Part shown: piece by piece, positions 16,464 through 22,009 of the stretch
Layout: each line of letters starts with the position of its first letter
Position numbering within the stretch: the stretch's first letter is position 1
NCBI GenBank assembly: GCA_029856155.1
Contig: JAHQWL010000081.1
Location: forward strand, 45,637-109,636
Reading direction: 5' to 3'
Source of the DNA: Promethearchaeia archaeon
GTDB lineage: Archaea; Asgardarchaeota; Lokiarchaeia; Sigyniarchaeales; SOKP01
DNA length: 64,000 nucleotides
Notes under the pieces: generated by a model
What the model was told of the DNA's origin: nothing
Seen by the model: only the letters and a program-made list of their open reading frames with translations
The model's database searches: none
Made by a program: the position numbers and the translations under genes

Positions 16464-16494
16464 TTTTAAAAAAAAGGCAAGGAGTTTAAAATAA

Positions 16495-16569
16495 TGGCCT
16501 GGGGGGGATTTGAACCCTCGATATCTGGCTCCGCAAGCCAGCGCCCTATCCAAGCTGGACTACCAAGCC
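16495..16569 (-). tRNA. tRNA-Arg(GCG), no encoded CCA
   Basis: Cloverleaf: acceptor GGCTTGG/CCAGGCC, anticodon arm CTGGC-TTGCGGA-GCCAG, T loop TTCAAAT (one A.C mismatch in the T stem). Confidence 0.93.
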
Positions 16570-16706
16570 ATTATAATCTTTATATGTAATTCTTGATAAA
16601 TAATTATTTTCTCTAATAAGTATTGTATTTATTTTAATATTTCAAGATTAAAAATGTAATCTAATGCAAAAAAATTAAAAAAAAGATAAAAAAAGGGTTA
16701 ATAATG

Positions 16707-19700
16707 CTAGTATTCTCTCATAATTTCTGTATAGAGATTCTCAATAAATTTGCTAAAATTGTCTTTATCATATTTGACATTAAGTAAGTGCCATAATATC
16801 TTTGGAATATGCTTTTGATCTTCATATACGGGAATCAGTTTTATCAAACCTTCTTTTCTCATTTGGAACGCTGCTTGCCATTCATCTTTTACAGCTTTAG
16901 ATTTCACAGAATTTTCGCTACAAAAGAGTAGAAAGGTATTACTTACTTCTAGTGTTTCTTCCATGAATTCTACGATGTTTGGTTTGCTATCTTTTTCCCA
17001 ATACGAGACTTGGTTGATGTTAGGATACTTTTTGAGCTCTTCACAATCTTTTCTATCTGAAAATGATCTCGATCAGCGGTAGAATAACTTATAAAGAGAT
17101 TATACTTTTTTTCTTCCTCTTTCTTTATTATAGGTGGAGGGATAACCGCTTTTTTTATTTCTCTTTCTTTAACGGGTGGAGCTACTTCTTCCTTTATAAC
17201 TGGTTTAGAAATTTCTACTTCTAATTCTTTACAATCTTCAACCTTTTCATTTGCTCTGTTAAAAATGTAGTAGAAATCATACATATCCGCGGTATCTTGA
17301 ATTTTTCCTAAATTTTTATAAGCTAATTTAATTTTCCTTTCCCTTATGAGATAATCGACAAAATCCAGCTTTTCTTCAAGTTTAGCTCTAACTTTTTCTT
17401 TTTTCTTCTCACTTATTTCTTTTTCCTTCTTTGTTGGAATTGATATTCTCTTTTTTATAATTATGGCTGCCCCCGTAACTCCAACAACTACTAAACCAAT
17501 TATCAAAACGATTATTAAAATATCAAAAGGAAATCCACTAGGTAGCCTTGGTAAAATATTATTTAAACCAATATTATTTCCAACACCCGTATCTACAATT
17601 GCTTGACCATTATTCAATAGAGTGTTCCAATCAATAGAATTATAGTTAGACTGATCCAGAAATATTCCTATTCCGTTGTTGTTTATTATATTATTTGTTA
17701 TATTATTATAATGACTGTTAGATAAATGAATACCATATAGCTCGTTAAAATTTATTGTCTCTTTATTATTAAGGATATCGATATTACTACAATCAATCAA
17801 TACAATTCCAGACCTCTCATTGTTATTAATTGAATTCTCTGTTATCAAAATGTTTTGACAAGAATCTAAAATTATTCCATTCGCGTTATTAAACGAACAA
17901 TTATTATAGATTAATTCACCATTTATCGTTGAGTCTAGTTTAATTCCCCCATCATAAAGATCGTCGCCAGAATTATAAAAAGTACAATTTTCAATCCTGA
18001 AATCTACATTCGAATTTCTAATTGTAAGACAACTAGTTGAATTCAAGCCATCAATTGTAATTAATCCAATTATATATGGATCATTTAAAGTACCAGAACC
18101 ATAAATCCATGCTAATTGGCTAATACATTCTACCCACGTAAAATCTCCAGTTCCACTATCATCAATAATAATTGGATCTGTGAAACCATTTTCAACATTC
18201 CAATTAAAGATATTATTTACACCACCACTTTCATAGATACTATATAAGTTTCCAATGAATACATTACCTATGACCTTAGTATTATTGCTGCTCCATAAAT
18301 ACAGTCCCGCAAAAGTGTTATAATTTGCTATATTACTTGCAACGATGGCATTATTGCAGTTCCATACAAATATTCCATTCCAACCATTATTATCTACGAT
18401 ATTTCCTACAACTTTAATATCTTGACCATCATATATGTCTATTCCATTGTCACCATTAAAGGTAACATTGTTGTTCATTATAGTATTGTTATTACTTGAA
18501 GATGATAAATAAATGCCTTTTTGGTCATTATTAAAAGCTGAGTTTTCTGAAATTGTATTATTGTTACTTAAACCTAAATACATCCCATCAGAATTTTCAT
18601 TTAAAATGTTTCCCGAAAGAATATTATTATGACTTACTTCTAAAAATATTCCAGACTCTTCATTATTGTTTACTATATTTCCATCAATCGTAACGTTTTG
18701 ACTTTGGTATAACCCAATTCCGACACCATTATTATTTGAACAGTTATTGGTTATCAATTGTCCATTAATAACATTTGTTAATTTAATACCTGCATTATAC
18801 ACTCCTGAACCGGAATTAGAAAGTGTGCAACCTACTATCTTAAAAAATACCGTAGAATCCCTAATTTCTATGCAGCTACTTGAATTTTGACCATCGATAA
18901 TTAAATTTTGAATTATAAACGGATCAGAGTAGCTGCCAGAACCTGTACACCAAATAAACAGATAAGCTGCTTCTACCCATATAAGATCGCCTCCTCCATT
19001 GTTATCTATAACAAATGGAGAAAGCATTCCATCAAAATAATTTAAAATAAAATTGTTATTTACACTTTCAAATTCACTAATGTGTTGAAATAAGTTCCCA
19101 ATGAATGAATTACTTATAACATCTGTATTATTGCTTCTATATAACCTTAATCCGAATAAATCGTTATTACTTAAAGTGTTTCCAATAATTGTATTATTAT
19201 TGCTTTCCCACAACCACATTCCATAATCGTTATGGTCTACCGTATTTCCTATTACTGTATTATTATGACTATGAGCAATAAATATTCCTTCATCATTATA
19301 GGAAAAATTATTATTTAAGATCCAATTGTGATTACTTGAAGATTCTAAATAAATCCCTCTTTGGCCAATATTATTAAAAGCTGAATTATCTGAAATGTTA
19401 TTGGCGGTACTTAATCCTAAATAAATCCCAGAATAATAATTCTCATTACAAACATTTCCCGAAAGACTGTTATTATGACTTGTTGCTAGAAATATGCCAT
19501 ACTCATCATTATTACCTGCAGTATTTCCTGAAATTGTAATATTTTGACTATCAGATAAACGCATTCCATTGCCGTTATTATTTGAAAAGTTATTGGATAT
19601 CAATTGTCCATTAATCACATTTATTAATACGATTCCTGCATTATCTAGCCCTGAAGAAGAATTAAACGTTATACAGCCTACAATTATAAAATACTCATCG

Positions 19701-22009
19701 GAGTTCTTAATCGTGATACAACTGCTTAAATTTAATCCATCTATAATTAAATTTTTTATAGTATAAGGATCCTTAAATGTTCCAGATCCAGAACACCACG
19801 CTAATTTATTTGATGCTTGATCCCATTTAAAATCCCCTCCCCCACTATTATCAATGGTAAATGGAGAACTTTCATTATTAATAACATTCCAATGAAATGT
19901 ATTATTAAAGCTATTTATTTCATTATACCATCCGTTTACATTATCATTCAAAATATTACCACATATAAAGCTGTTATTACTATCATGTATAGTTAATCCA
20001 AAATCATAGTTTTCTTTAATTAAATTTGCGATAATAAAATTATCTTCACAATTATATAAATAAAGCGCGCTTAAAGTGCTCTCTGTTATAGTATTTCTTG
20101 AAACCGTATTATTATAAGAGTCTGAGTATAACATAATTCCATAAGTGTTGTCTCTAACTAAATTTTCTAGAACTGTATGATTATTACCAAAAGATAAAAA
20201 AATCCCATACATCGAATTAGATTGTAACAAATTTCCTAAAATGGTACTATTTTGACACCAGGCCACAATAATTCCTCCTAAATTATTGTTATTTAAATTG
20301 TTACCTGAAATGGTGCTATCATCACTCCAACTTTGAATCCCACGTTCATCATTATAACTTATGTTATTTCCTAAGATTTTACTATTATCACTGTGAAAAA
20401 TATGTATACCATCGTGAACATTATGGTTTACGATGTTTCCTATAATAGTACTATTATCACCTTCCCAAATGTATATTCCATTTCCATTATTATTTGAACA
20501 ATTATTACCTATTAATGTACCGTTATTTGAATGGTCTAACTTAATTCCTGCATGATTTAAACCTGTGGCGGAATTAAAAACTGTACAATTTTCAATCTTA
20601 AAAAAAACATCAGAATTCTCAATTGTGATACAACTGCTTAAATTTAATCCATCTATAATTAAATTTTTTATAGTATAAGGATCATTAAGAGTTCCCGAAC
20701 CAGAACACCATGTTCGAGTTTTAGCCCAATTCCAGTTATTAGATGCACTATCATCAATGGCAATCTTACTTCCATTATGTCCATCATCCCATAAAGGGAA
20801 ATGATCTTGACCTCCTGCAATACCTGAAATATTATAAGGTGAATCTCCAATACCATCATCATTTTGATCTATTCCTGTATAATCATCCCAGAAATTTCCC
20901 ATATTTGTTTTATTCCACTTATTATTTGTACCAGTACCTCCATCAAAAGCGTTAATTCCATTTTTAATAAAAGAATTATTATAAAAAAGATTATGATTAC
21001 TATCTGTGAATGCGTCTTCAATATAGATACCACTATTATTATTTTCATGAATCTCATTATTAGTGAAATTATTATAATCACATTGATCGCTTAACCATAT
21101 TCCAATGTCATTTTTACTCAAATTATTTCGCGAAAGCACGCTATTATCAACATACATGAAATATATTCCTTCACTAGTACTATTATATATTATATTATCA
21201 GAGACTGTGTTAAAATTACTATGCTGTGAGAAAATACCCTGATCATTATAATATAATGTATTTCGGACAATAATATTACTATCACCGGAGAAGTAAATCC
21301 CACTATGACCATTATTATATATTTTATTGTCTGTAACATTATTATGGTTACCACCCGATAAATAAACTCCAATCCAACCATTATCAATAGTATTTTCAGA
21401 GATTATATTTTGGGTACTTATAACCTCAATAATTGCATTATGGCTATTATCAATAGTATTTATTGAGATGTTATTTTGATGACTGTATCTTAGAGCTATT
21501 CCTGAATCTCCATTATCTTTTAAAGTGTTTCCTGTGATTGTGATATTATTACAGGTTTCAATCCACATTCCAGAACGTCCGTTATTAGAACAATTATTGT
21601 TTTCTATTGTTCCATTGTTGACATTTTCTAAAAAGATTCCCCCATATAGATTATCATCCTTTGAATTAAAGAGAGTACAGTTACGAATGATAAAATATAC
21701 ATTAGAATTCCGAACTGTAAGACACCTAGCAGTCGTTTGTCCATCAATCGTTACATTTTCAATAATATATGGATCACTCCATGTACCTGAACCTGAGCAC
21801 CAAGGTTGACCTACTGCCCAAGTCCAATTATTACTAGGATTTAAATCATTAATAAGAATTGGAGTACCGGTGAGATCCCAATATCCTGCATTTTTTAAGC
21901 TAGTTTCATAATTATTGTTAGGTTGATCAAAAGTATCTAAAATGAAATTAGTTAAAGTTATAAATGTAATGATTCCCATTAAAGACATTATTTTTAAGTT
22001 CTTTTTCAT
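16707..22009 (-). CDS. Beta-helix (NosD/CASH-like) repeat surface receptor with single TM and C-terminal TIR domain; 1-nt frameshift in TIR near 17040
   Basis: ORF 16970-22009 reaches YNLFISYSTAD...IVK. The -1 frame continues ELKKYPNINQVSYWEKDSKPNIVEF into ORF 16707-16964 (FLLFCSENSVKSKAVKDEW...IPV). Confidence 0.85.
19713..20683. repeat. Exact 59-bp direct repeat (19713-19771 and 20625-20683)
   Basis: gtgatacaactgcttaaatttaatccatctataattaaattttttatagtataaggatc occurs in modules 2 and 3. Confidence 0.9.

Follow-up and report, generated by a model that had tools for sequence, protein, structure and literature searches.

A transmembrane TIR protein gene of an Asgard archaeon and the modular family of putative sensors to which it belongs

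Prokaryotes are known to use TIR domains in soluble enzymes of defence, and receptors that join an ectodomain, a transmembrane (TM) helix and a TIR domain are, to our knowledge, regarded as an animal invention. A 5.3-kb gene on the minus strand of a 64,000-nucleotide stretch of contig JAHQWL010000081.1 from Promethearchaeia archaeon (this whole stretch is called the window; gene at 16707–22009) encodes a surface protein in which a beta-helix ectodomain and one TM helix precede a TIR domain that is split over two reading frames. This locus raises the question of what such a protein is and how it might carry a signal into the cell. The gene belongs to a family of type-I membrane proteins specific to Asgard archaea; that these proteins work as sensors which signal through an NAD-derived messenger is the reading reached here, with a probability of about 0.5. 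An earlier note, made from the letters of the window, had proposed a receptor analogous to the Toll-like receptors (TLRs) that senses something outside the cell and signals or defends through its TIR domain, an interpretation that, taken as a whole, is partly supported. The parts that the note had listed are all found where it had placed them.

The long open reading frame (ORF) at 16970–22009, minus strand like all features of the gene given here, encodes 1679 amino acids (aa) according to the ORF list and its translation; 1656 of these, together with 111 residues from another frame, make up a restored protein of 1767 aa, the length that had been estimated. The N-terminal signal peptide or signal anchor (residues 1–27, 21929–22009) begins with MKKNLK, that is, with three Lys before a hydrophobic stretch, and a matching N-terminus is found in the intact ortholog P0006; those of relatives were assessed by hydropathy scan. 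The ectodomain (residues 28–1496, 17522–21928) consists of five tandem right-handed beta-helix modules of the NosD/CASH type, as the Asn-rich parallel beta-helix of the earlier note had suggested. In the Pfam scan of the 1679-aa product, NosD (PF05048) matches in nine stretches with an E value of 1.1e-126 and Beta_helix (PF13229) in 11 stretches with an E value of 2.4e-117. The modules start at residues 70, 434, 738, 1020 and 1301, each with the motif W-x-x-GSGT..DPY..IDG, and coincide with five direct repeats in the DNA, so that both the hidden Markov model (HMM) match and the repeat structure of this class are present. Module 1, the only one with a full NosD-type C-terminal cap, matches the solved NosD structure 7o0y with an E value of 2e-6. 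Asn makes up 19% of the ectodomain of ~1470 residues, and the many NxS/T sequons pointed out earlier are indeed there (49 in 1468 aa), but they are no commoner than this composition predicts (43.7 ± 5.2 in composition-matched shuffles); sequon enrichment was therefore rejected as evidence on topology, to which the sequons add nothing.

The orientation of the protein is indicated by the charges around its only TM helix (residues 1497–1518, 17456–17521), which was recognized by hydrophobicity, is followed by KKR and is 100% identical in the ortholog. Only one of the 15 residues before the helix is Lys or Arg, as compared with six of the 15 after it (KKRISIPTKKEKE...), and the tail is therefore predicted by the positive-inside rule to be cytoplasmic, the topology on which the idea of an intracellular TIR domain depends. 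The predicted cytoplasmic linker (residues 1519–1635, 17105–17455) is helical and Pro-rich, as had been described: in alignment A4, which covers 20 relatives of the closer group, it comprises a Lys/Glu-rich helix, then a TPR-like helical hairpin that is conserved (..AYKNLGKIQDTAD..), and finally a spacer rich in Pro, the first ~65 residues being nearly invariant and the Pro-rich part variable.

The TIR domain itself is split over two ORFs, as the earlier note had perceived. Its first 21 residues (YNLFISYS...FQIEKIV, 17042–17104) are read in the same frame as the long ORF and were delimited by aligning them to orthologs and to four intact paralogs, and the other 111, including the SxAVKDEW helix, lie in the -1 frame (16710–17041), where they are recognized by TIR_2 and by a profile of the family (E 3.9e-59). 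The annotated 85-aa ORF at 16707–16964 is the ATG-started end of this second part and matches TIR_2 (PF13676) with an E value of 2.5e-9 and 38.1 bits (cut-off 28); the tail of the intact ortholog P0006 reaches 4.5e-16 and 59.9 bits. All three HMMs named for checking (TIR_2, NosD and Beta_helix) thus match. Because the copy in the window is frameshifted, the fold was predicted from the tail of P0121, a metagenomic fragment ~95% identical to it, with an alignment of 117 relatives. The model has the flavodoxin-like alpha/beta fold and the five-strand order of TIR domains (predicted local distance difference test, pLDDT, 90.2; predicted template modelling score, pTM, 0.84), and among its 48 Foldseek matches with E values of at most 1e-3 those listed are nearly all TIR domains. 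Hydra TRR-2 and TLR2 come first, followed by MyD88, AbTir, SPARTA and plant TIRs, a spread over TIR classes by which the modelled domain appears to be a regular TIR without special affinity to the TLR class. The protein is accordingly a member of both the TIR superfamily and the NosD/CASH beta-helix class.

That this tail belongs to a larger family becomes clear from its relatives. A search of 5.8 billion proteins with the TIR piece returned 117 longer proteins with E values of at most 1e-27, and the source names given among them are all Asgard (Promethearchaeota, Lokiarchaeota/Lokiarchaeia and Thorarchaeota). In 113 of the 114 in which the strand-A motif was located, the TIR domain starts 118–138 residues from the C-terminus, nearly always 127–130; in the one remaining protein the TIR is N-terminal and a resolvase domain comes after it. 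The parts that precede the TIR differ greatly: in type-I proteins they are beta-helix, Peripla_BP_6, SBP_bac_5, FG-GAP/PQQ propellers, PKD or fn3, and other members have an N-terminal block of three to four TM helices with a long linker, or no TM helix. TIR identity across these architectures is 48–95%, and on these comparisons the TIR is judged far more conserved than the ectodomains. One TM-linker-TIR tail is joined to quite different input parts in paralogs and relatives, and the survey of Asgard genomes that the earlier note had called for has in this way yielded a large modular family.

The same modularity is seen within the genome of the window (4.1 Mb in 104 contigs, 97% complete, 5.7% contamination), which holds four intact paralogs with the same tail. 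The closest to the tail in the window, with 63% TIR identity, is a 1262-aa protein that combines a Venus-flytrap domain (Peripla_BP_6/ANF_receptor), a beta-helix, a TM helix, a linker of the window type and a TIR (G000:C81:14513-18301, equal to L008:5514-9302, minus strand). The others are a 1037-aa beta-helix protein and a tandem pair (G000:C79:7656-11626, equal to L009:4657-8627, minus strand) of 512 aa, with an ectodomain of unknown type, and 799 aa, with PKD and beta-helix. The tandem pair adjoins a gene for a 1430-aa FG-GAP surface protein without a TIR. Elsewhere in the genome are a cytosolic 421-aa protein of ankyrin repeats and TIR_2, whose TIR falls outside the receptor family (G000:C4:33370-34635, equal to L010:3371-4636, plus strand), and a divergent TIR in a 559-aa frame (C31:38178-39854).

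The distribution of the family is narrow and patchy. The TIR is present in 61 of 301 genomes sampled from the phylum, and a single genome can have as many as 13 matches; the positive genomes belong mostly to one family (48/68) and its order, and in the genus of the window 10 of 21 genomes have it. A pattern scan of one genome per species over 185,579 prokaryote species found 69 loci, all in Asgard metagenome-assembled genomes (MAGs), the patterns being the family's own motifs, so that distant relatives elsewhere would escape.

With respect to animal receptors, the analogy that had been drawn holds in one part and fails in another. Like Toll-like, IL-1 and Hydra Toll-related receptors, the protein has a type-I ectodomain, a single TM helix and a cytoplasmic C-terminal TIR, but it differs from TLR and IL-1R in having no leucine-rich repeat (LRR) or Ig ectodomain, since the Pfam scan of the window product gave only NosD and Beta_helix and no LRR, and its TIR appears to have no special affinity to theirs. 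It would work like an animal TLR/IL-1R without being a member of that group, the likeness being one of layout only, and its confinement to a section of a single archaeal phylum speaks for convergence with the TLR layout. LRRs do occur in the family in another form: P0065, P0093 and P0104 (483–485 aa, from Promethearchaeota MAGs) join LRRs and a helical, PCI-like part to the family TIR, and by hydropathy scan they have no hydrophobic helix, which makes them a soluble LRR-TIR form.

What the ectodomain contributes can be judged from P0006, which is intact, 1707 aa long and found at a syntenic locus in three metagenome contigs. Identity between the window protein and P0006 is 41–42% in modules 1–2, 65% in module 3, 84–86% in modules 4–5, 100% in the TM helix, 85% in the linker and about 90% in the TIR. 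As identity rises inward, the membrane-distal tip evolves much faster than the rest, as is expected of a ligand-contacting surface. An adhesin tip would diverge in the same manner, and it has to be considered whether the protein is mainly a structural surface protein, an adhesin or a carbohydrate-active enzyme, whose TIR only anchors or organises it from inside. NosD/CASH beta-helices are typical of carbohydrate-binding or carbohydrate-modifying surface proteins, a weak AlgG epimerase match stands beside the Pfam and NCBIfam beta-helix matches, and the truncated product of the split gene would still be anchored at the surface. Each module of the ectodomain is a NosD-type parallel beta-helix; the protein differs from NosD, however, in its five tandem modules, its fusion to TM helix and TIR and the lack of nos genes around it, and P0006, in which the TIGR03804 repeat occurs in 16 stretches, stays below the NosD subfamily cut-off (214.9 vs 300 bits). 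Against a structural role, the same tail also occurs with inputs that are no adhesins, namely Venus-flytrap Peripla_BP_6, SBP_bac_5 and 4-TM ones, and a 140-residue enzyme-like domain so conserved exceeds the needs of an anchor, so that this explanation is very unlikely.

For a sensor, a chain of events can be proposed that is given roughly even odds as a whole. The fast-diverging outer modules would bind an extracellular glycan, polymer or particle, and binding would cluster or reorient the cytoplasmic tails. The TIR would then act as an oligomerisation-dependent, NAD+-consuming enzyme and make an ADP-ribose-type messenger. For some members at least, this messenger would be read by the SLOG domain of an adjacent RelA/SpoT-TPR-SLOG protein, whose nucleotide pyrophosphokinase domain would give the response.

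The enzymatic step is suggested by the active site. The conserved Glu to which the earlier note had drawn attention, that of KDEW, stands on the alpha-C helix and is invariant, together with the Trp that follows it, in 117 of 117 relatives; it aligns with the Glu of WDEL in Cat1 and with the Glu of a TIR-TPR chain. The highest VIA scores, tied with others, are those to SPARTA and Cat1, which are oligomerisation-activated NADases. The family differs from SPARTA TIR-APAZ, Cat1 and AbTir in its low identity to them (15–20%), in one active-site residue discussed below and in its extracellular input, theirs being a nucleic-acid or cyclic-oligoadenylate sensor.

The read-out step is suggested by gene order. 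The single RelA_SpoT match in the genome of the window is an 856-aa protein (G000:C92:82820-85387, minus strand, equal to L014:4818-7388) with RelA_SpoT at residues 49–169, TPRs, and LSDAT_prok (SLOG) at residues 509–660. Only 100 bp separate its gene from the end of contig C92, which places its upstream neighbour beyond the assembly; in 97%-identical relatives that neighbour is an 827–833-aa multi-TM TIR protein. Among the 301 genomes, orthologs of RelA-SLOG (at least 48% identity) occur only in TIR-positive ones, and in every assessable case (G189, G276, G177, G273, G207, G147 and G071) the gene is at most 3 kb from a family TIR gene, as was confirmed for six of these seven loci by ORF calling, family HMM and BLAST. 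Two JGI contigs have the same arrangement, which brings the count to at least nine loci, and the TIR partner and gene order vary among them (827–833-aa multi-TM, 254-aa and 1638–1689-aa beta-helix forms). The model of the C-terminal SLOG half (pLDDT 83.6) matches MHR1/2 (LSDAT-SLOG) of TRPM channels, ADP-ribose-bound TRPM2 being among the best. TIR genes beside RelA-SLOG genes and a SLOG fold like that of ADP-ribose-binding TRPM2 fit signalling from outside to inside by an NAD-derived messenger. A conserved 526-aa protein with only a sub-threshold DUF4407 match is also often found beside the RelA-SLOG and TIR genes (L016:7755-9335, L017:11806-13386, L020:6525-8105 and L091:9695-11275).

Such an arrangement recalls Thoeris, in which the TIR protein ThsB makes a signal of the cyclic ADP-ribose type that is read by the SLOG effector ThsA. 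The likeness lies in the TIR with conserved Glu and in a gene beside family members whose product combines an effector enzyme with a SLOG domain. In contrast to the soluble, cytoplasmic ThsB, however, the TIR here ends a membrane-spanning protein whose extracellular part is large. Instead of SIR2-SLOG, the candidate effector joins a RelA/SpoT-like domain to TPRs and a SLOG of the LSDAT type; the window gene does not adjoin a SLOG gene, and matches to ThsB are marginal.

A number of observations weigh against the messenger chain, and the first of them concern catalysis. The Trp at -4 in the S-x-W-C-x-x-E motif of NAD+-cleaving TIRs, which is needed for NAD+ cleavage in AbTir and SARM1, is absent from the alignment of relatives, where a nearly invariant Ala takes its place in the motif S-x-A-V-K-D-E-W; the Val of this motif is invariant, and the invariant Trp stands after the Glu instead. 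The 799-aa paralog in the same genome (L009:6228-8627) has Gln for Glu (KDQW), and animal TLR TIRs keep the Glu without known NADase activity. Given the Ala and the Gln-bearing paralog, enzymatic activity of the TIR is plausible but not assured. The same substitutions favour a non-enzymatic scaffold of the kind known from animal TLR/IL-1R/MyD88 signalling, the main rival, in which clustered tails would recruit a conserved cytoplasmic partner through TIR-TIR or linker contacts and no messenger would be made. The extreme conservation of the TIR and the juxtamembrane helical module would suit a shared protein partner, the TIRs of Hydra TRR-2, TLR2 and MyD88 are among the best fold matches, and the ankyrin-TIR protein and the 559-aa divergent TIR of the genome are possible cytosolic adaptors. 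A scaffold is nevertheless considered rather unlikely in view of the Glu invariant in 117 of 117 relatives, the tied top VIA scores to the NADases SPARTA and Cat1, and the family genes that adjoin a SLOG protein with an ADP-ribose-binding-like fold.

The coupling to RelA-SLOG is likewise open to objections. Most TIR-positive genomes have no RelA-SLOG; in genus g4 the TIR is found in 26 of 28 genomes and RelA-SLOG in three of 28. In 71 genomes of the family, Pfam LSDAT_prok, a weak model with matches at or near the cut-off, found only the RelA-SLOG of genus g1. One RelA-SLOG locus from NCBI has no TIR gene within 7 kb; at this locus a metallo-beta-lactamase with a weak match to the Anti-Pycsar protein Apyc1 is encoded two genes upstream (L092:5284-5946). 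RelA-SLOG is, in addition, syntenic with a lysine-fermentation cluster, so that shared ancestry of the gene order may account for some of the adjacency, and the genomes in which RelA-SLOG adjoins a TIR gene are related, not independent. The window gene and its ortholog, finally, lie among housekeeping genes, and next to the gene in the window there is none that encodes a SLOG effector or another effector that binds a signal.

The neighbours of the window gene are HAD, NMO, an MBL-type protein and gltX on one side and HAD, an NTP-transferase and an amidase on the other, with an aldehyde dehydrogenase also in the neighbourhood. At the ortholog locus, a 377-aa class-Ib tRNA synthetase gene (tRNA-synt_1b, L011:13245-14378) lies between the TIR and HAD genes, and the same spot in the window (16464–16706) holds 243 bp only. 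The locus is not a defence island, and PADLOC gave only marginal matches (PDC-S66, ThsB, bSEFIR and TIR-NLR at E values of about 1e-3, those to ThsB at 0.002–0.007), which also counts against a Thoeris-like reading. These data bear on the proposal of antiviral abortive infection, in which a virus or foreign particle docked on the ectodomain would make the TIR use up NAD+ or switch on a toxic effector of the RelA/SpoT type, and the infected cell would stop growing. Nearly all characterised prokaryotic TIR proteins are defensive (10.64898/2025.12.03.692087, for Thoeris), and a TIR with a SLOG effector follows the logic of Thoeris. Tandem arrays, copy numbers of 0–13, the patchy occurrence within the genus (10/21), several broken copies and the fast divergence of the outer modules would agree with defence. 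Beside the housekeeping neighbours and the marginal PADLOC matches, however, ectodomains of the amino-acid- or peptide-binding type point to nutrient or chemical sensing, and no known defence system has an extracellular virus-sensing domain; this proposal is thus regarded as unlikely.

The preferred reading, a sensor that signals through an NAD-derived messenger, concerns the intact protein, and the state of the gene in the window has to be considered separately. Before the break the long frame reads YNLFISYSTADRDHFQIEKIV, followed by 23 unrelated residues and a stop (the out-of-frame tail, 16970–17041, minus strand), and the -1 frame is open from 17072 down to 16710 and reads ...EELKKYPNINQVSYWEKDSKPNIVEFMEETL.... 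The four intact paralogs of the same genome and several orthologs align over the junction without a change in length as K-I-V-x-E-L-K-K-Y (KIVEELKKY in P0121, KIVKELKKY in P0006). In DNA, relatives have GTG-GAA-GAG or GTA-AAA-GAG, and ATT GTA AAA GAG at ortholog locus L011 stands against ATT GTG AA GAG in the window. Since intact relatives have one more base there, the alignment indicates that exactly one base is missing at 17041/17042, between GTG (Val1656) and AA-GAG, by which, in this assembly, the TIR is cut after its first strand and helix. A frameshift in a nearby A4 run was rejected, as frame 1 still reads KIV like all relatives, and programmed frameshifting is unlikely because GTG-AAG offers no slippery heptamer of the form X_XXY_YYZ and relatives simply have one extra base.

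The missing base may be a real lesion, which is somewhat favoured, or an assembly or consensus error, which is given a little less than an even chance and under which the organism would have an intact gene for 1767 aa with GTGGAAGAG or GTGAAAGAG at the junction. An error would agree with a sole lesion in 5.3 kb, with the fully intact downstream TIR frame, ~95% identical to an intact relative, with the intact junction of every relative examined, and with the 104 contigs and 5.7% contamination of the MAG, in which a mixed-strain consensus is possible. The base is missing in a GG or AAA context, however, and not in a long homopolymer, and the eleven flanking genes show no frame breaks against the ortholog locus, their lengths being within 0–4 residues of their counterparts, so that the assembly is not generally indel-prone. 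Broken family copies in G273, G071, G030 and G141 further show that decay of copies occurs. Two of the loci concerned are L017 (G071:C47) and L020 (G273:C15), one of them with a RelA-SLOG gene split into two ORFs (616 and 335 aa), so that the window is not alone in having a lesion in the TIR/RelA-SLOG gene set. The 1679-aa product has no exact match in the protein collection, the 85-aa ORF comes from one NCBI contig only, there being no second assembly nearly identical to this one, and the nearest DNA relatives, 85–88% identical, are too distant for dating the lesion. If it is real, the gene would encode a surface protein without its output domain, a very recent pseudogene or a decoy.

No description of Asgard transmembrane TIR receptors was found in the literature, including PMC11291487, PMC11249213, 10.1101/2024.10.26.620412, PMC11284389 and 10.64898/2025.12.03.692087, subscription journals being mostly uncovered, so that an earlier description is possible; matches to Rst 2TM-1TM-TIR and to TIR-NLR have been described as enriched in Asgard (PMC11291487). 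Very few signalling pathways have been described for Asgard archaea in the literature searched. In its broadest form, which is judged less likely than not, the proposal is that Loki-type Asgard archaea have an outside-in TIR second-messenger pathway, in which single-pass and multi-pass receptors with interchangeable sensors would activate a shared TIR enzyme, and its ADP-ribose-type product would be read by an LSDAT-SLOG domain that switches on a RelA/SpoT-like nucleotide pyrophosphokinase. Such a pathway would be without precedent among prokaryotes as a system of transmembrane TIR receptors, and it would parallel in function, within the group most closely related to eukaryotes, both TLR signalling and ADP-ribose sensing of the TRPM2 type. 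The link to SLOG-RelA/SpoT, if it holds, would make a path from the cell surface to nucleotide alarmone signalling open to testing. If its lesion is real, the copy in the window also illustrates how members of the family are lost by small lesions. An Asgard-only family that places many extracellular sensors on one TIR shows that, in the archaeal lineage closest to eukaryotes, the combination of ectodomain, TM helix and TIR has an independent or a far older origin.

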